64,000 bases of DNA from Ignavibacteriota bacterium (GCA_963776275.1 CAVZMI010000023.1:224001-288000), one strand, 5' to 3'; shown: positions 1-26,325, counted from the first letter of the stretch. The notes: generated by a model not told the origin, from the sequence alone. Numbers and translations are program-made.

Positions 1-183
1 ATCGCACGAACGGTTGTTGCCAAAGAACTGGCGAAGATCACATATCACGTTCTACATCGAAAACAAGAATTTATAACATTTAAGGGCATAGAGATCGACA
101 AATTACGTGACTGGCCTTCCCGACCCTGTCGGGAGAAGCCCGTGCGCATAACAGGAGAAGAGGTATATTCTCCTCACGCTTGA
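1..183 (+). mobile_element. C-terminal end of a probable IS110-family transposase (truncated by window edge)
   Basis: Frame +1 reads IARTVVAKELAKITYHVLHRKQEF...HA*, resembling the IS110 C-terminal 'A.ARKLA.I.YHVL' helix; followed by ~375 bp of structured non-coding DNA. Confidence 0.6.
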
Positions 184-562
184 TTGGGATCCGGGAGTGT
201 CGCCGATGAAATATCCGGGATGTGTTGTTGATCCGTGTTGAAGCCAAAGCCCGTTAAACCTGTCCTGAGCTTGCCGAAGGAGTGTTTGGGACGCCGGTCC
301 TTGATCGTGTCTGATCCCTTACCCAGGGATATTTGCTCGGCGCTATGTCAATACTCAGACCTCTGTTGTCAATGAACAATATCAATCGTTGTTCTCACAA
401 CGATATAGGAATACTTTTTTCTCTTGTGAAGTTCCGACGTACTTTGTCGGAACGACATCCCGCCGTTCTCGTCTATCCTGAGCGAGTCCCGCCTTATGCG
501 GGACGAGTCGAAGGATGGCGGGGACTTTGCTTGCCCCGCGTTCTTTGCGGGGCCTTTTATAA
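184..562 (+). ncRNA. Probable IS110/IS1111 right non-coding end, candidate bridge-RNA region
   Basis: Hairpin-rich non-coding stretch after the transposase stop, ending ...GCCCCGCGTTCTTTGCGGGGCCTTTTATA right next to a cassette core site; inference from IS1111 organisation. Confidence 0.35.
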
Positions 563-565
563 AGT

Positions 566-581
566 AATATGCGGCGTGCCC
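566..581. repeat. Remnant core/terminal repeat of the most distal att site (cassette end)
   Basis: AATATGCGGCGTGCCC matches the reverse complement of GGGCATGCCGCATAAT (1410-1425) at 14/16. Confidence 0.65.
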
Positions 582-674
582 TGACCAGTATTCTCAAATG
601 AGCGAGTGCAGACCCAGCCCACGGGCGGTGCAGACATGAGGTCGAAGAAAGCTGGTCGCTCGAGTAATCAAAGA

Positions 675-1310
675 TCACGGTTCCAGTTCAAAGCGCTCGA
701 TGCAGACGCTGTCTCCTTTCATGAGATTCTTCGGATTTGTCACCTTGATCTTTGGGTTGAAGGCCTTGGCTATCGCATCTGAGGGAGCACACTCAATGGC
801 GTATCCAATGTCCGCAGCGTTCATCTCTCGATACAGCTTGGCGATGAGGCATTCGGTGTACTTTGCCTCGTAAGCCCGGTCGGACTTCTCAACCACTTCG
901 TATGTGACGGCCTTGTCATAAGGTGGCGTAGCCAAATAGCCCTGGATGAGATCACCAAGCGCTTTCGGATCTCTCGAAGTGTAGCTTTTGGCCATAGAGG
1001 AGATAGCTTCGGCCATGTTGTCATCCGAAGCCTTTTTTAGGAGTTCAAGGAATTTCTTGCTGCCGAGTTTCTTTTGGAGATTCTGGAACAGCGGAACACA
1101 GTATCCATAGGTAAAGCGAAACACCTCCTCGGTGGTCATGCCCGAGTTATCCGAGTATTTCGGTTTTTGGAGCGATGCTTGCTGACCGGCAAGAGCCAAT
1201 GTAGCGCCAAACATACTGTGACAACCGAGGCAGAGGAGCGCGCCAGCCGGGAAGTCTCTTGACAAGAACTTTCTCCGGCTCGATTGGAGAGACTGATTCT
1301 TGGTTGACAT
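675..1310 (-). CDS. Cassette gene: L-2-amino-thiazoline-4-carboxylic acid hydrolase-like protein with Tat-like signal
   Basis: SRRKFL twin-Arg motif; C-terminal ECLIAKLYRE...IGYAIEC..D...FNPKIK....LMKGDSVC pattern. Confidence 0.7.
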   Translation of the reverse strand: MSTKNQSLQSSRRKFLSRDFPAGALLCLGCHSMFGATLALAGQQASLQKPKYSDNSGMTTEEVFRFTYGYCVPLFQNLQKKLGSKKFLELLKKASDDNMAEAISSMAKSYTSRDPKALGDLIQGYLATPPYDKAVTYEVVEKSDRAYEAKYTECLIAKLYREMNAADIGYAIECAPSDAIAKAFNPKIKVTNPKNLMKGDSVCIERFELEP

Positions 1311-1418
1311 GATAACCTCCAAAGTTGTGATGAAGTTGATGATGTCTCCGAGGTGTCACCTCACCGCCCGTGCGATAGGTGACGAGCTTTTTCAAAATCT
1401 ATGATGGTGGGGCATGCC

Positions 1419-1565
1419 GCATAATGTCCGCAGTAGCAACGCAGTGTCGCCGCGAACTCTGAACAATTCATTTCTCTGTGAGCGGCGGCATTGAGTGATC
1501 CCGACGACCTGTACGCCATTTCTTTAGCGGGAGTCGGGAGAGCGTCGTTGCTGCCGTTATTAGCC
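1419..1565 (-). repeat. attC-like recombination site 1 (variant AAT/ATT core)
   Basis: GCATAAT+GTCCGCAGTAGCAACG ... CGTTGCTGCCGTT+ATTAGCC; 16/13 geometry; inner stem CAGTGTCGCCGC/GCGGCGGCATTG. Confidence 0.75.
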
Positions 1566-1598
1566 GCCGGCTTTCGTCCCTCCACCGTTGGCTGACAA

Positions 1599-2530
1599 TT
1601 ACTTTTTAAAACTCGTTTTCAGCGCTCCGGTCGGACAGCTCTCAACGCAACGCTGACAGAGGATGCAATCGCCTTTGCCAATGCGTGTGCCCATTCTCAC
1701 ACGCTCAGCCACGGGAATGTCCATCGGACAGACTTCCGTGCACGCCTCGCATTCGTTGCACGCCTCGGCCTGGGCGGAGACATGGAGAAGCGCCGGGCGG
1801 CTCGTCCAACGCAGAATGAATCCGGTGGGACAAAGGTATTTGCAGAACGCGCGTTGGTCGTGCAGAGCCAGTGCCAGCGCAATAGCTGCCGCATAGTAAA
1901 CGGCAACGCCGGCAGCGACGGGCCAGATGCTGTTGCCGCGCATGTGTCCGTGGGCTCCGCCGGGCTGGGAGTCTAACACCAGCGCGAACAGAACTGCGGC
2001 CGCAAAACTGACGGCCACACCGACAAGCGGCGTCCAAACCCAAACACCCTTGCGCCGGCCCGAGCCCTTGCCGACGGGAAGACGCTCGAGCACCATCGCA
2101 CGCCAACACCCCCATCCACACAGAATTCGGCCAAAGATGAGCGGCCCGATGACGGTGGTCACCATCGTGTGACCGATAGCCGGGCCTACTGTTCCCAGGA
2201 TCAGGAGCTCGAAGAAGCCATCTATGTCGAGGTTGACGGCATCGACCAATGAGAACATGAGAATTCCCAATCCACCGGTGGCCAGGACGAGCCACCGCCA
2301 CCACTGTTTGCGGTCAGCGCGGGCAAAGGCGTAGCCGGCGAGAAATGGACCTTGGGAGAGCCCCGAACCGAAGAGAGCAAATTGCGAAACCCAATGTGTT
2401 TCCCCGGAACAGTACTACTGCAGCCAACGGCCAAAAGACGAGAAGGGAGATAGCGCTGACGACGAGCAACGCACGACTGACTCTACGGGGGGTCGTGCAC
2501 TCCCCGGTCACGGGATCCTCCGAGGATACG
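1599..2530 (-). CDS. 4Fe-4S binding membrane protein (NapH/MauN-like), frameshift near 2350; 5' end uncertain
   Basis: GRILCGWGC, FCKYLCP, CNECEACTEVCP and CILCQRCVESCP motifs; N-terminal TM part is in ORF 2314-2637. Confidence 0.75.
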
Positions 2531-2539
2531 CATACATTC

Positions 2540-2830
2540 GGATTCTTCTTCACCTGTAGAAATTTTATAAACATATAAATATACTTTATTACAATTGTTA
2601 AAACAACGATGTCCAAAATAATAATCGAACCAATCAAAAAAGATCACACCAATGATGCCAGATAATAACTCTCCTACAAAAACAAAAGCAATCAAAAACG
2701 ATTTATGAATTTCAACGATCCAACTGAGTACTGTGTGCCCACCTTGGATTGCTGTTTTCATTATTAAAAAGATTACGAATAAGAATTCGATAAATAGTAC
2801 TATTAAAAACGATTCTTTCAGTTTTGCACA
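2540..2830 (-). pseudogene. AT-rich small membrane protein, frameshifted or truncated
   Basis: Hydrophobic stretches split over ORFs 2483-2761 and 2314-2637 at an A-run near 2637-2641; abrupt GC shift near 2550. Confidence 0.4.
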
Positions 2831-3062
2831 TATCTTAATATGGTTGCGCCCTAACTATTGTTTATATGGTTTCCGCGTAAGACCACTGTATGTTCCATCG
2901 CAGCATTACACGCCACAGTCAGAATTTCCAAAAGCGCTAAGCCCAAACAAGTTATCGCCGCTCAGCTCACTGACAAGAGTGTTATGCGGTTTCGGCATAA
3001 CATGGCACGCCTTTCGTTCCTTCGTGCCGCAAAACGCCTTAAGAAAATGAATCTTTGCTTGC

Positions 3063-3226
3063 ACATAACGTCCGGCATGCCCACGCAGTACCGCCACGCC
3101 ATTTTGCAAATGAACAATTTCATATTTGCAGCGTGGCGGTATTGAGGGAGCACAATTTATTTTGCTTAATGAGTTTTTATTATCGTCTGACTAGTTGTGC
3201 GACCGTCGTGGGCACGCCTGTTATGC
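3063..3226 (-). repeat. attC-like recombination site 2
   Basis: ACATAAC+GTCCGGCATGCCCACG ... T+CGTGGGCACGCCT+GTTATGC; inner stem TACCGCCACGC/GCGTGGCGGTA. Confidence 0.9.
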
Positions 3227-3293
3227 GACGCGCAGCCGAACCACCAATTCGATCTCTTCGTGTAGATAGAAAAGTTGTAATTTTCTGTTGTCG

Positions 3294-3950
3294 TCACTGA
3301 GCCAGAGTATCGACCGTGACTGAAACAACTTTGCTCTTTTGGAACAGCTTAGTTTCTCGTATGGAACGACGAATTCTCTCGTCAAACCAAGTATTTTTCT
3401 CAGATATCTGAACTAGCTTGCCTTTCACGAACTGATAGCCGCATTCTGTACCACAACACGCACCAGATTGTTCCATTGTAGTCAACGTCCGTGTGGAACT
3501 ATCGGGTGTTAGTTCACTAAGTTTACTTAGCTCGTCATGGTAGAAGAATTTTTTTGTTTTCGGACTGAAAAGCCAAACATACGACCAACTCCCACCACTT
3601 CCATAATCGTATTCCAGCATCAGATCTAGATATCCATCGAAATTGAGATCCTTGGCTATGAATGCCCCTTCCCCAAAAGGATGGTATGTTTTGAAGTTTT
3701 TGAGGATTTGAAAAATTCCCGGTTTGTCTGACCGCTTGATTTCGATTCGTGATACCGAATGCACTGCCCCCGTCTCACTTGTATCTTCGTTAACGATGAA
3801 ATGCAATGTATATGGGGGTAGTGTAGAATGTATGGTAATGGTGTATTTGTAGTCGATTTCGTTGGGTTGACCACTTGTCAACCTATAGAAGCCTACCAAC
3901 AGGAACGCAATTCCAAGGATCATGAGTAATTTCAGTTTAGGAGTATTCAT
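3294..3950 (-). CDS. Cassette gene: exported hypothetical protein (XAC2610-like, DxNFDGYxD loop)
   Basis: 218 aa, N-terminal TM/signal, DLNFDGYLD Ca-binding-type motif; bounded by att sites. Confidence 0.75.
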   Translation of the reverse strand: MNTPKLKLLMILGIAFLLVGFYRLTSGQPNEIDYKYTITIHSTLPPYTLHFIVNEDTSETGAVHSVSRIEIKRSDKPGIFQILKNFKTYHPFGEGAFIAKDLNFDGYLDLMLEYDYGSGGSWSYVWLFSPKTKKFFYHDELSKLSELTPDSSTRTLTTMEQSGACCGTECGYQFVKGKLVQISEKNTWFDERIRRSIRETKLFQKSKVVSVTVDTLAQ

Positions 3951-4021
3951 TTCAATGAAAACCTTGAAGTATAGTTATACTATACATTGAAACCACCAAA
4001 CCTTTGGTGAGGCTGCGTGGC

Positions 4022-4139
4022 GCATAACGTCCGGCACAAAAATGACGTTGGGGCGCGAACTAATAATGACTAATTATTCTGTGAGCGACCCAATGTTTAT
4101 TCGGATTTCAAACTGCCAACATTTTTGTGCCTGTTAAGT
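4022..4139 (-). repeat. attC-like recombination site 3 (belongs to ORF-less cassette copy 1)
   Basis: GCATAAC+GTCCGGCACAAAAATG ... CATTTTTGTGCCT+GTTAAGT; identical to 6395-6512. Confidence 0.9.
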
Positions 4140-4219
4140 GCACGTGACCGCGGCACTTCACTATACTTCAGGACTTCAACTCGCGCCACTTCAAAGACTG
4201 CTAACGCCGCGGGCATTGC

Positions 4220-4328
4220 ACTTAACGTGTGCGGGCACTACGCAGTCCCGCTTGCCACTAAGAACAATTCAATTTTCTGTGGCAAGCGGGATTGAGTGTT
4301 CTTCACGTCGTAGTGCCCGCTGTTATGT
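4220..4328 (-). repeat. attC-like recombination site 4
   Basis: ACTTAAC+GTGTGCGGGCACTACG ... T+CGTAGTGCCCGCT+GTTATGT; inner stem TCCCGCTTGCCAC/GTGGCAAGCGGGA. Confidence 0.9.
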
Positions 4329-4340
4329 GCAGTTGCCCGT

Positions 4341-5817
4341 TCATCGTAATAAAATAAGTTTCTTTGTCTCAACAAAACCACCAGCTTCGAGTCTATAATA
4401 ATACACACCGCTTACAATACCTAATGGATTCCATTCTGTTGTATAAGTACCGGCACTCAAATCTTGCGACAAAAGCTGTACGACTTCCTGTCCTAATGTG
4501 TTGTAGATTCTTAATGAGACATGTACTTCTTTGGGGAGTGAGAATCGTATCGTTGTGGTCGGGTTAAAGGGATTTGGATAATTTTGCCAAAGGTCGAATG
4601 CAGTCGGAATATCTCCTTCAGGTTTAATACCTTCCACCCCAACATTTCCGTCAACATCCGTCTTAATTAGATATATCTGTAGACTGTCCCCGAAAGACCA
4701 GGTTTCACCAGTTATTATATAGCCACCGTCAGTAGTCTGCTGAACGGAGTGACCATAACCCGACTCATAGGTTTTTGTCCACAATGTATCCCCAGAAGAA
4801 TTGGTTTTAAATAGGTAAACATCATAATCGAGGGCATCGTAGGAACTCTGTCCCGTGATGATGTATCCACCGTCTGTTGTCTGCTGTATGGAGTTACCAT
4901 AAGAGTAACGTCTACCCTCATAGGTCCCCCCATATGTCCTTGTCCAAACGGTGTCCCCATTGTCATTAGTCTTGATTAGATAGACTGCAGTTCCAGAGAA
5001 TAAGTCCATATCCCCAACAACGATGTAGCCGCCATCAGTAGTTTGCTGAACGGACCGACCCCTTGAATGTGATGAGCCCGCCCCCTCGTAGGTCACTTGT
5101 CCAAAGTGTATCCCCGATTGTATTAGTTTTTATAAGGTAAATATAATCTTTGTAGGTAGCAAAATTTCTGATATATCCCTCAACGATGTAGCCCCCATCC
5201 ATGGTCTGCTTGATTTCGTTTCCCTCATCAGTATAATAAGTGAGCGTTCCCCCGTAGGTCCTGGTTCACAGTGTGTCCCCGGAGGAATTGGTTTTTATCA
5301 GGTAAACTTTGTAAGAACCCTTAGCCCCTGCAACGATGTATCCGCCGTCTGTAGTTTGCTGGACGGAACTACCAAATTCGTCGCCCGACCCCCCATAGGT
5401 TTTTGTCCACAGTGTGTCTCCGGAGAAATTGGTTTTAATTAGGTAAACCTGTATGCCACTACCGAAAGAGCCGGTACTTCCCGCAACAATGTAACCACCA
5501 TCCGTAGTTTGCTGAACGGAGTGCCCCCCATCATCACCCGCTCCTCCGTAGGTATTTGTCCAAAGTATATCCCCATTGGCGTTGGTCTTTACGAGGCAGA
5601 CATCGTAATTTCCTGCACCGAAGGAATTGGTCCTGCCCGCTACGATGTAGCCCCCATCAGTAGTCTGCTGGACGGATTGACCGTATTCTCTTCTAGTCCC
5701 CCCGTAAGTCCTTTCCCACCGCTGTTGAGAAACCGCAGGTTCGGCTAAGGTGAGGATCAGCAGGAAGAACAGGAGGGTAGAAAAGGTGAGCAAGTGAAGT
5801 TTGAAACGTAACTTCAT
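4341..5817 (-). CDS. Cassette gene: secreted beta-repeat protein with T9SS C-terminal sorting domain (two frameshifts near 5266 and 5096)
   Basis: Signal peptide; about 7 repeats of SVQQTTDGGYI.AG...YLIKTN.SGDTLWTKTYGG; C-terminal QNYPNPFNPTTTI...SGVYYYRL...TKKLILLR. Confidence 0.85.
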
Positions 5818-5949
5818 GGAAACCTCCTTATAATGATACTATTTGATAATGTTTCATAATCCAAGTATAGCATTTCATAGTACACCTCCACTAATTTTGC
5901 ACTCCTTTTCTTCCTATCGTCTGTAGGCAGATCTTGAAAGGGCAATTGC

Positions 5950-6097
5950 ACATAACGTCTGGGCCAACTACGCACCCCGACCGACCAACATTTTGTCAAT
6001 TGACGGGCGGGGGGAACGAACTCTATTTGTCGCGCCGAACTAGGCACCAACGTTGCCTTACCAAATGAAGTGAGTGTCGTAGTTGGCGCTGTTATGC
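5950..6097 (-). repeat. attC-like recombination site 5
   Basis: ACATAAC+GTCTGGGCCAACTACG ... T+CGTAGTTGGCGCT+GTTATGC. Confidence 0.9.
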
Positions 6098-6340
6098 GCT
6101 GGCGGCCGCCCCGCACCTGCGAATTATGACCTGCCTTGCTTTTTGACGCCTGTATGATCCCTTGCCACGGTGGGTATCGCACAGTCCCGCCCAAAACCTT
6201 TCGTATGACATGGGATGTTCATGCTTGGACCGCCAGTGCGCGTCAATTCCATCCCACCCGTGCCCTTGAAAAACGTGATTGCACTCTGGACAAATCCGAG
6301 GGCCGGTCTTCGGTACCATTTTTTCGCAACATCTGCACAT
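6092..6340 (-). CDS. Cassette gene: small Cys/His-rich (Zn-finger-like) protein
   Basis: CRCC, CPEC, H...H, C..H; RBS-like GGAGG upstream; fills a 0.3-kb cassette; stop TAA lies in the core site. Confidence 0.65.
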   Translation of the reverse strand: MCRCCEKMVPKTGPRICPECNHVFQGHGWDGIDAHWRSKHEHPMSYERFWAGLCDTHRGKGSYRRQKARQVIIRRCGAAASA

Positions 6341-6394
6341 GTTATACTAACCTCCGTCTGTTTTGTCTGGTAATTATTCGGGGCGGCCGCTTGT

Positions 6395-6512
6395 GCATAA
6401 CGTCCGGCACAAAAATGACGTTGGGGCGCGAACTAATAATGACTAATTATTCTGTGAGCGACCCAATGTTTATTCGGATTTCAAACTGCCAACATTTTTG
6501 TGCCTGTTAAGT
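6395..6512 (-). repeat. attC-like recombination site 6 (ORF-less cassette copy 2)
   Basis: Identical to 4022-4139. Confidence 0.9.
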
Positions 6513-6592
6513 GCACGTGACCGCGGCACTTCACTATACTTCAGGACTTCAACTCGCGCCACTTCAAAGACTGCTAACGCCGCGGGCATTGC

Positions 6593-6726
6593 ACTTAACG
6601 TGTCGGCAAACACCGCCGTGCCGTTTGGCGTATATTAATGATTCAATTTTCCTCACGCCAAACGGCATGGAACGACCACCATAATCCTTCCCAATAAAGG
6701 GAGTGCCGGTGTTTGCCGTGTTAGGC
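6593..6726 (-). repeat. attC-like recombination site 7
   Basis: ACTTAAC+GTGTCGGCAAACACCG ... C+CGGTGTTTGCCGT+GTTAGGC; inner stem CCGTGCCGTTTGGCG/CGCCAAACGGCATGG. Confidence 0.9.
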
Positions 6727-6754
6727 GAAGTTGTTTTGCATTTGCGGAAAACGC

Positions 6755-7252
6755 TTAATGTTTCACAAGGGACTTACGAATGCGGTTATTGATCCCTTGC
6801 AGTGTATCTGTTTCAATTTGATGTTCCCAATAGCGAAGAACTTTCCATTTACACTTTCTCAGGATTCGAGTTTGTCGGACATCTCGCCTTCTGTTGTCGA
6901 GAATTTTTTCCTTCCACCAGAGCGTATGTGAGTTAGGAACCTTAAAATGAATGGGACAGCCGTGCCAAAAGCATCCATCAAGGAAGAGGCACACTTTATC
7001 CTTTGGAAACACAATATCCGCTTTTATCTTCAGCAGGGGCTCGGGTCTTACATTTGTACGAAATCTTAATCCAGCTTTTTTAAGGAAGATACGTAACCTT
7101 TGTTCCTGTTTGGTCTCGTGTCCTGTATTGCTTTGCATTACACGATGTACAAGGGGAGATGATGCACTAGGCGCACGAGATCGAATTGACTGTCTTGGCC
7201 GAGAGGCCTTTCTTCTATTGGTTGGTTTGGCTGTCCGTACTGACACTGTCAA
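6755..7252 (-). CDS. vsr: Very-short-patch repair endonuclease
   Basis: MQSN...TKQE, ADIVF, FLDGCFWHGCP, WKVLRYWEH motifs. Confidence 0.92.
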   Translation of the reverse strand: MTVSVRTAKPTNRRKASRPRQSIRSRAPSASSPLVHRVMQSNTGHETKQEQRLRIFLKKAGLRFRTNVRPEPLLKIKADIVFPKDKVCLFLDGCFWHGCPIHFKVPNSHTLWWKEKILDNRRRDVRQTRILRKCKWKVLRYWEHQIETDTLQGINNRIRKSLVKH

Positions 7253-8256
7253 ATTATTTTTGAGTCTGATGATCGTTTGTATTCTGCTTTTTCCTCACCG
7301 ACACTGATGTGAAAGGCATTTTCCGTCATACTAAAGCTAATTGGAGGTAATTCGTCGGGTGTCGCCTCAAGAGCCTGCTGCATCGGGGCTTTGACATATT
7401 TTTCCAAAAAGACGGTCATCACCTCACCAGCGGCTTTTTCGAGGTGCCGCCAAGCTTCATCTCCGACAAATGTAGTGCCACCAGCATCCTTGAATGCAGC
7501 AACCAATTCAGTGAGTTTCGGGTTTGGTGTTGGATCAAGAACGATGAGAACGGGTTTGTATCCACTTTGTTTGCAGTCTGTTGGAAAATCAACTTCTTCC
7601 TGCCAGCGACCTTGTCCCGATGCAGCGATGGTAACTCGAATCTTGATCTCGTATGCTAACTTATCTCGGATGCAATCAACTTGACGCCCTTTCGAGCCAT
7701 CATCGTGTCGTTTGATTGGACTTGCCTTAGCGCTAAAGGAAGCACCTCCGATTGCATTGGCGATTATTGGTTCGAAAAGGTAGCCAGTTTCTTGTCCAGC
7801 TCTATTGTCGATATCGAACAGCCACTTTCTCCATAGGAGGAACCCAGCTAGAGCTTGAGGGCTCATTTGCCCATACTGCAGGAGCGTCCGTGGACCTACT
7901 TGATCCATGGTTGGAACAGCTTGGTATTCAAGTATCCGAGCGTATTTCAGCCTGCTTTTTTGCAGGGTTGCCAAACAAGAGAAGTATGTATCAGCGTCCG
8001 GGATCAGTTTGAAAAGGCGTTCAATAAGCATGTAAAAGTCTAACTTAGTGAGTTCAAGCTTACGGGGATCGGCCTCGTCGAAGAATTCTGGAAAGCTTAT
8101 TTTAACCTCAGGAAACTTCTTAAGGATTTTCAAATCACGAACGATCGTTGCGACGAGGAAGGCACAAGCTTCATCTGAAAGGCCTGTGCCTAATTCACCG
8201 CCGCCAGCCGCCCTTGCCTTTTCAACGAGCGACTTCTGAGATTGTGTTATTGCCAT
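7249..8256 (-). CDS. Putative type II restriction endonuclease (PD-(D/E)XK-like)
   Basis: Lies between a C5-MTase and Vsr with overlapping stop/start codons; GYLFE...QVDC...YEIK catalytic-like pattern. Confidence 0.75.
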   Translation of the reverse strand: MAITQSQKSLVEKARAAGGGELGTGLSDEACAFLVATIVRDLKILKKFPEVKISFPEFFDEADPRKLELTKLDFYMLIERLFKLIPDADTYFSCLATLQKSRLKYARILEYQAVPTMDQVGPRTLLQYGQMSPQALAGFLLWRKWLFDIDNRAGQETGYLFEPIIANAIGGASFSAKASPIKRHDDGSKGRQVDCIRDKLAYEIKIRVTIAASGQGRWQEEVDFPTDCKQSGYKPVLIVLDPTPNPKLTELVAAFKDAGGTTFVGDEAWRHLEKAAGEVMTVFLEKYVKAPMQQALEATPDELPPISFSMTENAFHISVGEEKAEYKRSSDSKII

Positions 8257-9491
8257 AAAGCTATTTGCTCCAGTCCGATTTCTATGCGAGTAGTGGGAAA
8301 CCTACGTCTAATGCGGTATGTAATATCTTCAAGTACAGGACTCTTTCCGCTTGAGACTGTAGGAACAAAAGACAGTAATGCTCCATTCTTAAAAGACTGA
8401 ATGTTTGAAACTTTTTCAAGATCAAGTTGTAGATTGAGAGCAATTACTTCAGCAAGACGTGGTGGAACAGCATTCCCAATTTGTAGGATACATTCAGTGG
8501 TATTTCCAATAAAGATGAAGTCATCAGGGAAACTTTGAATGCGAGCACACTCGCGAAGTGTTAAGGTTCGATCATCAATAGGATGGATGAATTCTGATGT
8601 GGCACCACTCGTAATTGCCTTCGACGGTTGATCGTCTCTCAACCGTCTCAGTCCTGCGGGAGCTCCACCTCTTCGTTCTGTTGGGGTTCCGTCCATTACT
8701 CTTCTAAACGCTCTGCGTCGATAACTCTCATGCCATAACTCAGTAGGTAGGTCTTTCATCGTCTGACCTGGTTTCAGAAGGCGGACACGTTCAATGTCCT
8801 GCTCGGATAGTGGACGATAATAATGGCCATCTGGAAAACCGGGTGGCAACAGAGTAGGACGTGGTAAACCCCTAAGTGCATCGGCTAGCGTCGGACACGG
8901 AGGGAGATGCTTGAAGGCCTTTGATGCCCCAGGAGCTCCGTAAGCCGAATAAGTCGGTTCTGGGAACCGAGGAGACCATCCCAAGCCGCCAATTGCTATT
9001 ACTCGCTTGCGATGCTGAGGAACTCCGAAGTTTGCAGCGTTTATTTTTCGAAGATGGATCTGATAGCCTACGTCAACCAATGGTTCAAGTAGATCGAACA
9101 CTCTATTCCCATTATCTGCAGTTAGAAAACCCTCGACGTTCTCGAAGACAAATGCTTTTGGTTTGTGTTGGACAACTAGTTCTGAAAAAACTCTGACAAG
9201 TGTGTTTCTATGGTCATCTGAACGACGCATTCCCGCTGAGGAGAATCCCTGACAAGGTGGCCCTCCTATAATCACATCCGTGGATGGAATAATAGTTGAT
9301 TCGGTTATATTATCTGTCAGGATATGGTCTTCAAAGTTCCTTCTGTATGTCCTCGTTGCTGATTCATTGGAATCTATAGCAACAACGCAAGTAAATCCCG
9401 CCTTTTGAAAACCAAGCGAGAGCCCACCAGCACCGCAGAACAAGTCTGCGTAGGTCATATTGTTATTATGTCCTTGGTCTATTTCCAACAT
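8247..9491 (-). CDS. dcm: DNA (cytosine-5)-methyltransferase
   Basis: DLFCGAGG, GGPPCQGFS, ENV, PQHRKR, RECARIQSFPD, QIGNAVPP motifs. Confidence 0.96.
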   Translation of the reverse strand: MLEIDQGHNNNMTYADLFCGAGGLSLGFQKAGFTCVVAIDSNESATRTYRRNFEDHILTDNITESTIIPSTDVIIGGPPCQGFSSAGMRRSDDHRNTLVRVFSELVVQHKPKAFVFENVEGFLTADNGNRVFDLLEPLVDVGYQIHLRKINAANFGVPQHRKRVIAIGGLGWSPRFPEPTYSAYGAPGASKAFKHLPPCPTLADALRGLPRPTLLPPGFPDGHYYRPLSEQDIERVRLLKPGQTMKDLPTELWHESYRRRAFRRVMDGTPTERRGGAPAGLRRLRDDQPSKAITSGATSEFIHPIDDRTLTLRECARIQSFPDDFIFIGNTTECILQIGNAVPPRLAEVIALNLQLDLEKVSNIQSFKNGALLSFVPTVSSGKSPVLEDITYRIRRRFPTTRIEIGLEQIALWQ

Positions 9492-9568
9492 ATTGGTACT
9501 TCTTTACCCGTATTCGTTGCATGAAACATAATAAAAACTTATCAAAAGTCATAATGCAAAACAATTTC

Positions 9569-9701
9569 GCCTAACGTCTCGCCCAACAACGCAGCGCTTT
9601 TGCGAACTATAAATGGACCAATTCATTTGTGAAGCAAAAGCGTTGAGCGACAACAACTATACTCTATCAAAGATGGAGCGTCGTTGTTGGGCGTGTTATG
9701 C
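9569..9701 (-). repeat. attC-like recombination site 8
   Basis: GCCTAAC+GTCTCGCCCAACAACG ... T+CGTTGTTGGGCGT+GTTATGC; inner stem CAGCGCTTTTGC/GCAAAAGCGTTG. Confidence 0.9.
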
Positions 9702-9964
9702 GAAGCGCCCAAAGTCGCCTATTGGATACCACACGAAGCTAACGGTGTTACAAATAACGGGTGCCCCAACACAAGAATGCCGATCAAGAGTACAACATCA
9801 ATAATTTTATTACGTCCAGTTGATTTGCTGGATATACACATTTTACAAATTAATTTAGCTCCTTAGAGGTGTTAAAAATTTATTTTGTTATTATAACCCT
9901 TATTATTTTGGACAAATTATATTTGCATCTCTGCTTTGTTTATGTCATTCTTAAAAACTAAACT

Positions 9965-10390
9965 TTATGGACCTACATAACCACAACTGGAACAAATCTG
10001 TACCCCAGTAAGTCCAGCTTTTGGACCGTAGCCAGATGCACCGCAGCGCGGGCATTTTGGCCTAGAGGCAGTTACAATAGCCCAACAAGCTGGGCACACG
10101 GCCAAAAATGGTTTTCCATCTAATGTGGTATACGGTTCTGTCAATGCTGGGTGACCGATTTCGCCTTCAACTTGTCCACGATTAGAAGCGGGTACGAATG
10201 TGAATCGGCCAGTAGGTTTTCGACCACAAAAATTGCACGTATCATATTGAGGTTTAGAATTATTGTTCTTCGGATAATCTATCATATCTTCATGTTTCTT
10301 CTCTGATGCAAAGGTACCACGACCGCATCTAGGACATTTAATTAATCCATTTGGTACCTTCTCTCCACAGATGGCACATATTTTTTCCAT
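9965..10390 (-). CDS. Cassette gene: multi zinc-ribbon hypothetical protein
   Basis: Six CxxC motifs (CAIC, CPRC, CNFC, CPAC, CPRC, CSSC); likely start ATG at 10390. Confidence 0.7.
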   Translation of the reverse strand: MEKICAICGEKVPNGLIKCPRCGRGTFASEKKHEDMIDYPKNNNSKPQYDTCNFCGRKPTGRFTFVPASNRGQVEGEIGHPALTEPYTTLDGKPFLAVCPACWAIVTASRPKCPRCGASGYGPKAGLTGVQICSSCGYVGP

Positions 10391-10611
10391 ATGATTTATC
10401 GCCTTCTTAGTTTTTTTAGTATATACTTTGTATATATAAATATTGATTATATGGTTTCCATATAATACGCCTTCGCCATTGCCCTTCGGCATAACACGTC
10501 TCTGCTGTTTGCTCGTCAGGTTCCTTGTTTTTCCGGTTCTTGTATTAATAATAGTATAAATGGGTAACGATTCTATTGATATAGTCAGTCCTTTCTATCT
10601 TTGGGCGTTTC

Positions 10612-10728
10612 GCATAACGTACTGCGGCAACACGCCGTGCCGCCATTCCATGAAACATGAAATGACGGCGGCATGGAGCGAGCACCTTGAATATGAAACG
10701 GCGAGCGTCGTGTTGCCGCATGTTAGTT
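10612..10728 (-). repeat. attC-like recombination site 9
   Basis: GCATAAC+GTACTGCGGCAACACG ... T+CGTGTTGCCGCAT+GTTAGTT. Confidence 0.9.
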
Positions 10729-10994
10729 GCAGGCGCCGCTTCCACTGCCCTTTTCCCAAAGGGATCAATCCGGACAGTTGGCGCGCGTTCTCCATGGTGG
10801 CAGTGCCTTGCCAGTTCTCTTGCCAATCGTGGCATACTGCAGACGCTAAGGACACGTTGAACTTTCCGAACAATTGACTGCTTCCTCGTGACTGCCGCAC
10901 GCTTGGGATGACGACCCATGCGCAATATCATAGTCTCATCGTTCATTCCACCGCGGTTCCAAATATTTCGGCCGGTCATTTTCGTGAGATTTTT

Positions 10995-11369
10995 TCAGTC
11001 GGTGCATAGATTTATTGTCGGGAGCATAAATTGTCCTACAAAGAATTTATTGTCAATCGTTACAATCGCATTGTAGTATGAGCCGATCCCAAGGAATCCG
11101 CTATTGTAGGTCACCATCAGTTCGACGCTGTGGCCGCTATAAGTTCCAGTTGCATTGATCCCTTTCCAATCAAAAACAGGGACCGATTTAGTTATTACGG
11201 TTGAATCATTGACTATTACCTTGATAGCTGGATATAGTCCCGATTTCTCAACTCTGACCTGCCAAGTCTCACTAGTTGCACACGGCGATTGATATGTTGC
11301 GAACTTCGATGAGTAGCAGCCCGCGATTAGAAAACCGAATAGTAAAAAGAACGGTAACTTTCTCTTCAT
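10995..11369 (-). CDS. Cassette gene (first in array): hypothetical lipoprotein
   Basis: MKRK + hydrophobic segment + LIAGC lipobox. Confidence 0.75.
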   Translation of the reverse strand: MKRKLPFFLLFGFLIAGCYSSKFATYQSPCATSETWQVRVEKSGLYPAIKVIVNDSTVITKSVPVFDWKGINATGTYSGHSVELMVTYNSGFLGIGSYYNAIVTIDNKFFVGQFMLPTINLCTD

Positions 11370-11627
11370 ATTCTGCCTTTTTCTGTCTGATTTACTCCGA
11401 GACCGGAACTGCGGCTAAAGATGACCTTGACTGACACCTTTGGAACAGCTTGGTCATCGGCGCCATGGTAAGCAACGGTCGCCACGGAGATACCAACTCG
11501 TCTCTTCATTGATTGCCCTTGATAAAAATCCTCCACGAATTTATCAGGTCTCATGTTAAGTGTTCCAGCATTGCCGCGCGCCAACAAGTCGCAACCACTC
11601 TTTTAATAACTTTCTGGCGGCGCTTGC

Positions 11628-11662
11628 AACTAACATTTGCAACAACGCTATATAGCGTTGTT
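11628..11662 (-). other. attI-like primary recombination site overlapping the 3' end of the recombinase
   Basis: Lone core AACTAAC that completes the first cassette's terminal repeat, then 6 nt, then perfect 22-bp palindrome AACAACGCTATATAGCGTTGTT; no full attC partner arm. Confidence 0.7.
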
Positions 11663-12583
11663 CTCTTTTTTATCTGTGTCAGGAAGATAAATCTTTCTAT
11701 CTTTTTCTTCCTTCGGTAGCTCTTCTATCATTGAGTCGAGCGGACTTTTAATCTTCCCGATCGTACGAGTACTTATATGCGTGTAAATTTCTGTCGTTTT
11801 AATACTGCCATGCCCTAATAACTCTTGAATGTACCGTATATCCGTTCCATGTTCCAATAGAGCTGTCGCAAATGAATGCCGGAGTGTATGCATAGAAACC
11901 GTCTTGCGGATACTGGCTGATTTCACTGCACGTTCAATGACTTCCTGGATGCTCCGTTCTGATAAATGTCGTCCCGGTTTTGCACCGGGAAAAAGCCATC
12001 CGACTTCAGTAATCCTATATAATTGTACATAAGCATGGAGAGCACTCAGTACCGCTCTTGAAAGAATTGTGTATCGATCCTTTTTATGCTTTCCTTCTCG
12101 TACATGAATAACCATCCTTACCACATCAAGATCTTCGGTTCGCAAACGAACAACCTCGCCCACGCGTAATCCGCTTCCATAGGCGATCATCAACATTACT
12201 TTATGTTTTAGATTATCAATTTCTCTGAATATTCTTAGAACCTCTCCCTGATTCAGTACATCAGGGAGTCTTTTCTCCTTCATCGGCCGAGGTATTGAAT
12301 CGATCTTAAAAGGCATTCCATATAAATCGACATACAGTAATCGTAGAGCGTTAAAAACCTGGTTAATGCTCGATGCCTGGAATTGACGCTCCTCGATCAA
12401 GTAAAGCAGGTACGAGTGAATATCGTCCTCTGTCACATCGCGCGGGTGCCGCGGTCGAAAATAACTCACAAAGGAATGAAGCCAGCTAATATACGATTTG
12501 ATCGTCTTCGAACTATAGTTTTTCAGGCGCATCTCGCGCCGAACTGTCTCGAAAAACCCCGGCTTACTTTGTAACTTCTCCAT
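11648..12583 (-). CDS. Integron-integrase-like tyrosine recombinase lacking the IntI insertion
   Basis: N-terminal MRLKNYS.KTIKSY...RHP SAM-like domain; catalytic GLRVGE, GKHKKDR, HTLRHSFA, LGH, EIYTH; only ~20 aa between DRYTIL and WLFP. Confidence 0.92.
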   Translation of the reverse strand: MEKLQSKPGFFETVRREMRLKNYSSKTIKSYISWLHSFVSYFRPRHPRDVTEDDIHSYLLYLIEERQFQASSINQVFNALRLLYVDLYGMPFKIDSIPRPMKEKRLPDVLNQGEVLRIFREIDNLKHKVMLMIAYGSGLRVGEVVRLRTEDLDVVRMVIHVREGKHKKDRYTILSRAVLSALHAYVQLYRITEVGWLFPGAKPGRHLSERSIQEVIERAVKSASIRKTVSMHTLRHSFATALLEHGTDIRYIQELLGHGSIKTTEIYTHISTRTIGKIKSPLDSMIEELPKEEKDRKIYLPDTDKKENNAI

Positions 12584-12871
12584 CTTCTTTTCTCCAGAAT
12601 TGTTCCTCTACATTAAATAGAACGATTCTGGGTTACAGGTGGAGTTATCGTGCCATCTCTTCTCTAAATTAAAAAGTGGATGCGTCTATGAGTTTGTTCC
12701 AGTATAAGAGCCAAATATCACACCCTATCAGACAGGTTCGAAGGCGGCCCAATAAAAAATGTCGGGAGTATCTATGTCAAACGGAGTATAATAAACTGCG
12801 AATTAAAAAGCAATTATGTTGGAAATGCCTGAGTATTCTTGAAAACATAGAATCTACCGGCTGCCGATCGT

Positions 12872-13060
12872 TCACTCCAATATCTTTTGAAAAATATGCA
12901 CGTCTAAAAGTTTCCCAAATTGATAACTGACCTCTTTCAACGTACCGACATGAAAATAGCCGAAACTTTCACAGAGATGAAAGCTTTCGCTGCTCTCACC
13001 TGCCACGGGGGCGATAAGCGAATGATATCGCAAGCGATGTTAATCAGGTATCGTCTTATC
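12872..13060 (-). pseudogene. Degenerate duplicate of the 3' half of the GNAT gene at 13476
   Basis: 12872-12975 closely matches 13476-13575 (...LLDVHIFQKILE*). Confidence 0.7.
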
Positions 13061-24568: not shown

Positions 24569-25175
24569 TTTATTGGAGCTAAGACCCGTAGGGTCGATAG
24601 ATTATAACCCACATCCATTCTCCGTATACTCTGTTGCCACGGATGTGGGGTTGGCCACCTCAATACATAGGAGAGCCCCCGCAGGGGGCGTAAGACCACA
24701 GATCTGTAACCTGTATTCGTTCTAATTATTAGAACTAAGACCCGTAGGGTCGATAGATCATAACCCACATCCATTCTCCGTATACTCTGTTGCCATGGAT
24801 GTGGGGTTGGCCACCTCAATACATAGCAGAGCCCCCGCAGGGGGCGTAAGACCACAGATCTGTAACCCGTATTCGTTCTAATTATTGGAGCTAAGACCCG
24901 TAGGGTCGATAGATTATAACCCACATCCATTCTCCGTATACTCTGTTGCCATGGATGTGGGGTTGGCCACCTCAATACATAGCAGAGCCCCTGCAGGGGG
25001 CGTAAGACCACAGATCTGTAACCTGTATTCGTTCTAATTATTAGAACTAAGACCCGTAGGGTCGATAGATCATAACCCACATCCATTCTCCGTATACTCT
25101 GTTGCCATGGATGTGGGGTTGGCCACCTCAATACATAGCAGAGCCCCTGCAGGGGGGCGTAAGACTACAGATCTG
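24569..25175. repeat. Four tandem 156-bp REP-like units
   Basis: AAGACCCGTAGGGTC at 24581, 24737, 24893, 25049. Confidence 0.95.
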
Positions 25176-25190
25176 GAGGATTGTAAGATT

Positions 25191-25644
25191 ATGAGTCATA
25201 CCTACATTCAATTATATTTACATTGTGTATTTGGAACAAAAAACCGTTTACCCTACCTGAAAGATAATCTAAGGCCTCAGAATATTCGCTTACATGGGAG
25301 GGATAGTACGCGAACTCGGTGGAATACCTATCAGGATTAATGGGTCAAGAGATCATGTCCATATGCTTATCACTCTTCCTGCGCGGATGTCGGTCTCTGA
25401 AATAATGCGTATTGTGAAAACAAATTCTTCGCGCTGGGCACATGAATTATCATCAGAGAATAGTGACTTTGAATGGCAAACGGGATATGGAGCTTTCAGT
25501 ATTAGTAAATCAAATCTTAATGCAGTCGCAGAATATATTGTTCGACAGGAGGAACATCATCGAAGAAAAGATTTTATAACTGAGTATATAGAATTACTAT
25601 CAATGCATGGGATTGAATTTGATGAGAGGTACCTCTGGGATTGA
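25191..25644 (+). mobile_element. tnpA: IS200/IS605-type Y1 HUH transposase (RAYT-like), frameshift near 25280
   Basis: MSHTY...HCVFGTKNR, DHVHML, KTNSSRW, WQTGYGAFS, YIVRQEEHH. Confidence 0.9.
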
Positions 25645-25883
25645 TATGATTTTCTTTCGCCCCTCCGGGGCTTTGGGCTAAAGATGCTTTATCAAGACCA
25701 TGACTCACGTCATGGTCAAAGGTCTGACGCCACTCCGTGGCTTGATTGGTTTTCTTTCGCCCCCTACGGCCTACGGCTCGTAGAGGTCGTTGACCTCCGG
25801 GGCTTTAGTTTAATATGGAAGCCTTTTCAATCTATTATCGAATCCCGAATTTCGGATTCAACATCCCAATACCATAACCCATG

Positions 25884-26325
25884 TTTATTGGAGCTAAGAC
25901 CCGTAGGGTCGATAGATTATAACCCACATCCATTCTCCGTATACTCTGTTGCCACGGATGTGGGGTTGGCCACCTCAATACATAGGAGAGCCCCCGCAGG
26001 GGGCGTAAGACCACAGATCTGTAACCTGTATTCGTTCTAATTATTAGAACTAAGACCCGTAGGGTCGATAGATCATAACCCACATCCATTCTCCGTATAC
26101 TCTGTTGCCATGGATGTGGGGTTGGCCACCTCAATACATAGCAGAGCCCCCGCAGGGGGCGTAAGACCACAGATCTGTAACCCGTATTCGTTCTAATTAT
26201 TGGAGCTAAGACCCGTAGGGTCGATAGATTATAACCCACATCCATTCTCCGTATACTCTGTTGCCATGGATGTGGGGGTTGCCATCTAAATATATAGCAG
26301 AGCCCCTGTAGGGGGCGTAAGACCA
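25884..26325. repeat. Three tandem 156-bp REP-like units
   Basis: AAGACCCGTAGGGTC at 25896, 26052, 26208. Confidence 0.95.

Follow-up and report, generated by a model that had tools for sequence, protein, structure and literature searches.

Integron-type cassettes beside an IntI-like recombinase without the I2 insert carry long private arms, probably the outer halves of an extended attC stem

The window analysed here is a stretch of 64,000 nucleotides from an Ignavibacteriota bacterium (GCA_963776275.1 CAVZMI010000023.1:224001-288000). Its positions 1-11634 hold an integron-type cassette array in which every open reading frame (ORF) lies on the - strand, the + strand being the non-coding ("bottom") strand of the cassettes. 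The ORFs are separated by imperfect palindromes of 109-164 bases, which on the + strand are bounded by RYYYAAC at the left and by GTTRRRY at the right. With a finder of our own, eight clear attC sites and one degenerate site were recognized, arrayed as in integrons and composed of RYYYAAC...GTTRRRY (R) boxes and paired L boxes; their inner stem is 12 bp long and its sequence varies from site to site (Table 1). The cassette contents, among them several small unknown ORFs, are ordinary for integron-type arrays. At its end, 11634, the array is separated by 14 bp from the stop codon of a tyrosine recombinase gene. A perfect palindrome at this junction, which was listed as terminator-like, is a candidate for an attI-side binding site or for a terminator, and palindromes resembling it stand at the same place in three other loci (L042, L048 and L095).

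The extent of a cassette can be read from two repetitions. A run of 209 bp is identical at 4022-4230 and 6395-6603, with unrelated flanks; it takes in the attC site on its low-coordinate side and stops at the next AAC. Furthermore, cassette 1 is also found behind a second copy of the recombinase on contig C22, where the identity sets in at the GTT box and the sequences next to the recombinase are different. From the duplicated unit and the presence of cassette 1 in two contexts, it was concluded that a cassette consists of an ORF and its downstream attC site, as in integrons. These sequences place the crossover between AA and C on the + strand, that is between G and TT on the coding strand, inside the R box, in agreement with the integron pattern of an ORF with its own attC and a crossover between G and TT of R'. 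With the crossover inside the R box, the site's outer 3' arm stays with the first bases of the cassette, and the outer 5' arm stands just before the cassette's own attC.

The second recombinase copy itself (C22:9512-11215, L020:1471-3177) is 98.5% identical over 267 residues and is split directly after the catalytic Tyr. The split is due to an insert of about 300 bp, flanked by 9-base inverted repeats, which encodes a GIY-YIG protein (PF01541, 53.2 bits) and whose frame continues into the recombinase tail; cassette 1 comes next, and the two contexts then diverge in mid-ORF. This copy may represent either a second locus or a variant strain within the assembly (contamination 5.3%).

At the two ends of each cassette, sequences complementary to one another were found. 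Every repeat starts exactly at the GTT/AAC core of an attC R box, and a distance of 0.1-2.9 kb separates the two arms within the array. A first-pass annotation of the window had described these arms as private terminal inverted repeats extending far beyond the 7-base core. Five of its pairs were recovered in place and with equal match counts, namely 4322/5956 (16 of 17), 6091/6401 (20 of 23), 6720/9575 (22 of 23), 9695/10618 (19 of 20) and 10722/11634 (17 of 18). The sixth, 566/1425, is present as a pair, but 13 of 15 bases were counted by eye, not the 14 of 16 announced, and its cores are degenerate (AAT for AAC). Beyond this list, a further pair was recognized at 3220-3243/4005-4028 (24 nt, 83%), and in the 198-bp cassette that is present twice (4133/4226 and 6506/6599) 10 bp are paired, followed by an interrupted continuation. 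The mismatches are mostly G·T on the + strand, as had been proposed: in the window stems, 8 G·T pairs fall on the + strand and none on the - strand, and the other 3 mismatches are of a different kind.

The statement that the repeats are private to each cassette was examined with the seven distinct cassettes of the window at positions 8-20 only, outside the 7-base core. Between own ends, 9, 5, 11, 10, 12, 12 and 10 of the 13 positions matched; for the 42 non-own pairs, the mean was 4.4 and the maximum 8. The own pairing gave the best total, which was reached by 49 of 200,000 random re-pairings, about the share of 1/5040 that the identity permutation contributes alone. In the array context, the two boxes of one attC site pair over 4-10 bases only. 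Thus, the complementarity belongs to the cassette and not to the site within the array.

The seven distinct cassettes were also folded with DNA parameters, each one circularized in silico and compared with its array context. As the first-pass annotation had expected of the excised circle, every circularized cassette formed one long hairpin with the private repeat at its base, the arms abutting and the R-box duplex passing from 7 bp to 17-23 bp. From the outside in, this hairpin consists of the private stem, the R box, a 3-nt bulge on the 5' (R'-L') arm and an uninterrupted L stem of 12 bp; inward of the latter come a conserved unpaired T on the 3' arm and then the inner stems and loop. The mean fold energies were -54.2 kcal/mol (+ strand) and -48.5 kcal/mol (- strand) for the circles and -39.7 kcal/mol (+ strand) and -37.3 kcal/mol (- strand) for the array. 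For the same attC on the + strand, the mean gain of the circle over the array was about 14.5 kcal/mol, with a range of 6.4-18.1. The fold is strand-specific, another point on which the earlier proposal held, since in all seven circles the + strand gave a stabler fold than the - strand.

The recombinase next to the array matched the integron-integrase model TIGR02249 best, in two stretches and with 237.7 bits, below the cut-off of 265. The XerC and XerD models gave 178.8 and 178.1 bits against cut-offs above 329, which places the protein outside both families, and the Pfam matches were PF00589 and PF13495. Its best solved relative is VchIntIA (2a3v), of which residues 178-240 face residues 183-205 here, with about 40 residues missing; the IntI-specific additional domain (I2, the patch III insert) is absent from the window recombinase. 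In alignment A1, neither IntI insert block occurs in any of the 14 rows of this short family, and both are found in each of the 6 bona fide IntI. Among 146 distinct homologues, 94 are of the short type, 47 have an extra 38-42 residues and 5 are Xer-like. The names found in databases for the short family are XerD, tyrosine recombinase and "site-specific tyrosine recombinase/integron integrase". In the genome of the window (G000), no match above the IntI cut-off was found; 13 of 41 related genomes have one, and in three genomes (G028, G011 and G033) such arrays likewise occur in the absence of a bona fide IntI.

In quick maximum-likelihood trees, rooted on the 5 Xer rows as a thin outgroup, IntI formed one clade (support 100 and 99) with the short family outside it, and the family grouped with IntI apart from the 5 Xer rows (100). 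The short family was a grade when the insert columns were kept and a sister clade (83) when the 42 insert columns were dropped. With either tree, the short family does not consist of IntI proteins that lost the insert within the sampled IntI diversity.

The same architecture was observed downstream of homologous recombinases in genomes of the same taxonomic order, at L038, L039, L040, L046 and L048, and also on contigs of Spirochaetota (L095/L097), Bacillota (L058, L067, L113) and Bacteroidota (L071). A replication set of 39 distinct cassettes, from 12 loci in four phyla, was obtained from 56 adjacent site pairs after removal of 3 duplicates and of 14 pairs with fewer than 6 of 7 core bases matching, the majority of which probably arose where an intermediate site had been missed. 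In this set, stem positions 1-9 are Watson-Crick in 35-39 cassettes and position 10 in 28. At position 11, the + strand has a G·T pair in 33 of the 39 cassettes, a Watson-Crick pair in 1 and another mismatch in 5, and the base on the AAC side is T in all 39. Positions 12-18 are Watson-Crick in 27-33 cassettes, with all four bases occurring, and over positions 19-25 the pairing drops towards chance (9-18 of 39). When wobble pairs are allowed, the median stem length is 20 for loci of the Ignavibacteriales type (n=22), 18 for Spirochaetota (n=6) and 16 for Bacillota (n=10). The median stem was 9 (n=133) when non-own ends whose cores match were paired. No orthologous cassette pairs in which compensatory changes could be scored were found among the loci compared.

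Sites were located with our own seed-and-extend finder, which needs an exact AAC/GTT and a perfect L stem of 8-9 bases and which missed known sites. We relied on it because a cross-phylum covariance model was abandoned after MAFFT, applied to 55 sites, had failed to align the 3' arms correctly from one phylum to another. Downstream of the recombinase, the density of correctly oriented hairpins was 2.42 per 10 kb over the 80 best genome loci, versus 0.44-0.56 in three controls. About 25 of 80 recombinase contigs (loci L055-L134) end 32-400 bases downstream of the recombinase. Such early ends are expected if repeated attC sites break assemblies, and the arrays are probably under-counted.

In canonical integron cassettes, pairing beyond the 7-nt R' and R'' to a total of 9-11 nt is described in excerpts of PMC2727003. 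Exactly 12 bases were paired in the class 1 cassettes aacA4, blaOXA-101, aadB and aadA2, and 8 in arr-3. Nine cassettes beside bona fide IntI in relatives (L032, L033) had 8-17 paired bases, and six cassettes of other genomes had 6-11; the latter are those kept from a class-level proteobacterial sample of 19 scanned regions and 13 adjacent pairs, 7 of which were left out for unmatched cores. By a measure that counts Watson-Crick pairs only, with -2 per mismatch, the median stem was 18 (n=39) in the short-recombinase arrays versus 11.5 (n=20; range 6-17) in the canonical cassettes (Mann-Whitney p = 3.7e-5). In this comparison, cassettes of one array do not count as independent rows, and the canonical set is small, its 20 rows coming from three sources. 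On the question raised by the first-pass annotation, whether canonical ends are complementary over an equal length, the answer is therefore twofold: pairing beyond the core exists there too, but it does not reach equally far. Since canonical cassettes also pair beyond the core, the principle is already known, and the novelty is partial because of the 9-11 nt on record. The long private stems (17-23 bp in the window array versus 6-17 in the canonical controls) are a strong quantitative extension of a known property, to which is added a position-specific wobble without counterpart in the controls, the G·T at position 11 being absent in the class 1 cassettes and in those of L032 and L033. The latter arrays (L032:110-2824 and L033:113-5887), with their bona fide IntI, have a different attC type with long conserved arms outside the inner AAC/GTT pair, and the two types, this one and that of the short recombinase, coexist in genome G002.

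The window sites share with canonical attC the RYYYAAC/GTTRRRY R boxes, the paired L boxes, the variable loop, the order of ORF then attC and the crossover in the R box, as well as the non-coding strand as the stabler fold and, past the L stem, a conserved T left unpaired on the 3' arm. They differ in other unpaired features. The window attC has a 3-nt bulge on the R'-L' arm, whereas the canonical site has a spacer of 5-6 nt on each arm (PMC5027507, excerpts), and the 12-bp L stem is without the extrahelical G of canonical attC. In the folds, neither extrahelical bases on the R''-L'' arm nor an unpaired central spacer of 5-6 nt per arm, both integron characters in the same excerpts of PMC5027507, were seen. 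The layout is different as well: in a canonical integron, intI is divergent from the array, with attI and the cassette promoter (Pc) between them, whereas the window recombinase is co-oriented with its array and lies upstream of it. Integrases of the Treponema-type "inverted integrase" integrons are bona fide IntI with the insert, unlike the window recombinase.

It is very likely, in our judgement, that the private arms are the outer halves of an unusually long attC stem which are rejoined in the excised circle, with a role that would lie in folding, strand marking and re-insertion by an I2-less recombinase. The arms co-vary and are private because both travel with the cassette. In the excised circle, they would abut and lengthen the R-box duplex as in the folds above. 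The semi-conserved bases 8-11 probably complete an arm of about 11 bp bound by a Xer-like enzyme, and from base 12 to about base 18-23 the sequence is free while complementarity is kept. A long stem may stabilize the bottom-strand fold of the free cassette, raise correct folding and in this way favour re-insertion. The G·T at position 11, which pairs on the bottom strand only, would help to mark the recombined strand: its T would be kept on the bottom strand's cleaved arm, with a C·A mismatch left on the top strand. Such marking would be the role that extrahelical bases and I2 have in classical integrons, according to excerpts of PMC2727003 and PMC5027507. The acting enzyme is presumed to be the adjacent IntI-like recombinase without I2.

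Several observations weigh against this assignment. Deletion of the I2 insert abolishes the activity of IntI1 (PMC7790495, in the part available). As the unpaired features differ from those of canonical attC, what holds for IntI substrates may not apply here. By the strict measure, only 7-10 bases are paired in two short cassettes and in some Bacillota cassettes; a long stem is therefore not obligatory. With a crude finder, at least two hairpins were detected at only 9 of 43 short-recombinase loci having at least 2 kb downstream, and many members of the family may thus be unrelated to cassettes. A further point is the small set of canonical controls, 20 cassettes in all.

Other explanations of the arms were weighed against the same data. 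The arms could act in the array, where the cassette ends would pair across the single-stranded bottom-strand body, loop this body out and bring the crossover points together for excision of the unit. When whole cassettes with both flanking attC sites were folded as the + strand, the minimum-free-energy structures paired 19-20 of 20 arm bases with their own far arm in 4 of 5 cassettes, and none with a local partner, local R-box pairing in the array being as short as stated above. However, these folds describe equilibrium only; such pairing is made less likely by the faster formation of local hairpins, by single-strand-binding protein, by loop lengths of 0.3-2.9 kb and by the shortest cassette, with 0 of 20. 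We consider a role in the array unlikely, though deserving of attention; a role in the circle is compatible with it, and both could hold. That the complementarity is an unselected relic of cassette birth, left by a longer palindromic element or by templated copying, appears improbable. The attC inner parts are 78-82% identical over about 130 bases between cassettes with unrelated bodies, in which no body matches were found; ends and bodies thus have separate histories, and the origin of cassettes is given as unknown in excerpts of PMC4889954. Decay should give mismatches of all kinds, yet positions 12-18 remain mostly Watson-Crick across the four phyla, and the sole recurrent non-Watson-Crick pair is found at one fixed position with one polarity. 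Moreover, a palindrome inserted behind a gene would not pass on the arm downstream of the crossover.

The remaining two explanations do without a hairpin or without attC. The sites might be double-stranded Xer-type sites resembling dif modules, with the arms as two binding copies for the recombinase. In agreement with this, the enzyme lacks the domain tied to single-strand recognition, bases 8-11 are semi-conserved like a binding arm, and a crossover at the boundary of arm and spacer would give equal cassette limits. Such sites need no complementarity, yet the 12-bp L stems and the private positions 12-18 both co-vary, and the polarity of the mismatches and the greater stability of the + strand in all seven circles also speak against it, which makes this model highly improbable. 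Finally, the 17-23 bp inverted repeats that flank each coding segment recall the termini of small transposable elements unrelated to attC. This reading was rejected and is hardly credible: each repeat begins at the R-box GTT/AAC core, the duplicated unit includes an attC and is not bounded by the repeats, and no transposase family match was obtained among the scanned cassette ORFs.

The nearest precedent for hairpin recombination without I2 is that of CTX-phi and XerCD, likened here by description only. In such integrative mobile elements exploiting Xer (IMEX), the substrate is a hairpin imitating a double-stranded site, the enzyme is of the Xer type and has no I2, and only one strand is exchanged (PMC7790495, excerpts). 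In contrast to the array described here, one phage genome is integrated into dif by the host XerCD, with no array, no cassettes and no dedicated recombinase. By its published definition, the term CALIN (attC cluster without an integron integrase) would probably be applied to the window array, because the neighbouring gene fails the IntI-specific test. CALINs have been proposed to be degraded integrons (PMC9024848, excerpts); here, unlike in a CALIN, a conserved recombinase, a likewise conserved junction palindrome and an array recur together in several phyla. In the available parts of Cury et al. (PMC4889954), few insert-less recombinases near attC are mentioned, always with fewer than 3 sites and judged not to be IntI, and no complete integrons are reported in Firmicutes. 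Escudero et al. (PMC7790495), in the portion available, regard I2 as necessary and intermediates from Xer-type enzymes to IntI as lacking. In a literature search that did not extend to older subscription papers and supplements, no description of long private stems, of the fixed wobble or of I2-less recombinases with arrays was found.

The pairing of a cassette's own ends is thus a known footnote of integron biology that becomes here the dominant feature, together with an almost invariant wobble. Long stem and wobble offer a mutable handle on the folding and strand choice of the free cassette. In four phyla or more, arrays of 5-8 attC-type cassettes adjoin I2-less relatives of IntI. Should these enzymes prove active on them, I2 would not be needed for hairpin recombination of cassettes, and surveys that require the insert would have filed a whole class of cassette platforms as decayed remnants or have missed it. 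More tentatively, and with somewhat more doubt than confidence, we propose that a widespread IntI-like clade which never had I2 uses folded single strands to run an integron-like cassette system of its own, in which an R arm of 11 bp in Xer style, bearing a strand-marking wobble, and a long private stem replace the extrahelical bases and I2. If this is true, its members would be the missing I2-less relatives of integrons, also in Bacillota, where integrons were reported to be nearly absent. With its fixed wobble and its I2-less partner, the locus merits experimental study.

Table 1. Features of the cassette array and the adjacent recombinase gene (positions in the window)
Feature	Position	Strand	attC site	Arms	Details
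Tyrosine recombinase, 311 amino acids	11648..12583	-			Co-oriented with cassette ORFs; array downstream of its 3' end
Palindrome, 22 bp, perfect	11641..11662				Overlaps recombinase stop; 7 bp from first cassette junction
Cassette 1	10618..11633	-	10612-10728	10722-10739 / 11617-11634, 18 bp, G·T at position 11	
Cassette 2	9575..10617	-	9569-9701	9695-9714 / 10599-10618, 20 bp, G·T at position 11	Zinc-ribbon-like ORF 9965-10492
Cassette 3	6599..9574	-	6593-6726	6720-6742 / 9553-9575, 23 bp, G·T at position 11	Dcm methylase 8247-9491; 335-amino-acid ORF 7249-8256 (sub-threshold ApaLI-like match); Vsr 6755-7252
Cassette 4, 198 bp	6401..6598	-	6395-6512	Start 6506, end 6599; in the fold 10 bp, internal loop, then more pairs	Exact copy of cassette 7
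Cassette 5	5956..6400	-	5950-6097	6091-6113 / 6379-6401, 23 bp, G·T at positions 8 and 11	ORF 6092-6340
Cassette 6	4226..5955	-	4220-4328	4322-4343 / 5935-5956, 22 bp, G·T at position 11	
Cassette 7, 198 bp	4028..4225	-	4022-4139		Twin of cassette 4
Cassette 8	3069..4027	-	3063-3226	3220-3243 / 4005-4028, 18-24 bp, G·T at position 11	XAC2610-related ORF 3294-3950
Degenerate distal unit	564..1562	-		566-580 / 1411-1425, mutated cores	ORF 675-1322 (PF14196 match)

Cassette 3, with 2976 bp, contains a whole restriction-modification set in one cassette. Cassette 6 encodes a delta-60-repeat protein with a sorting tail of the type IX secretion system (4341-5817), which lies in at least two frames (ORFs 5266-5817 and 4341-5096) and is likely a pseudogene. 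In the twin 198-bp cassettes, an ATG at cassette position 11 of the coding strand opens a 40-codon frame running into attC, and their internal loop, CGTG/ATG, is seen again in short L039 cassettes. Beside the distal arms, a weak attC-like site, missed by the finder, was read by eye at 1419-1562. The distal array is decayed from 1562 to 3068: NapH-like ferredoxin fragments occupy overlapping frames at 1599-2304, positions 2981-3001 form a tiny GTT...AAC palindrome, and no clean attC could be defined between 1562 and 3063. An Rfam scan of window positions 1-13000 gave nothing at the gathering score. Outside the array and unrelated to it, seven hairpin-containing repeat copies with a spacing of 156 bases, at 24602-26284, were picked up by the attC seed finder.

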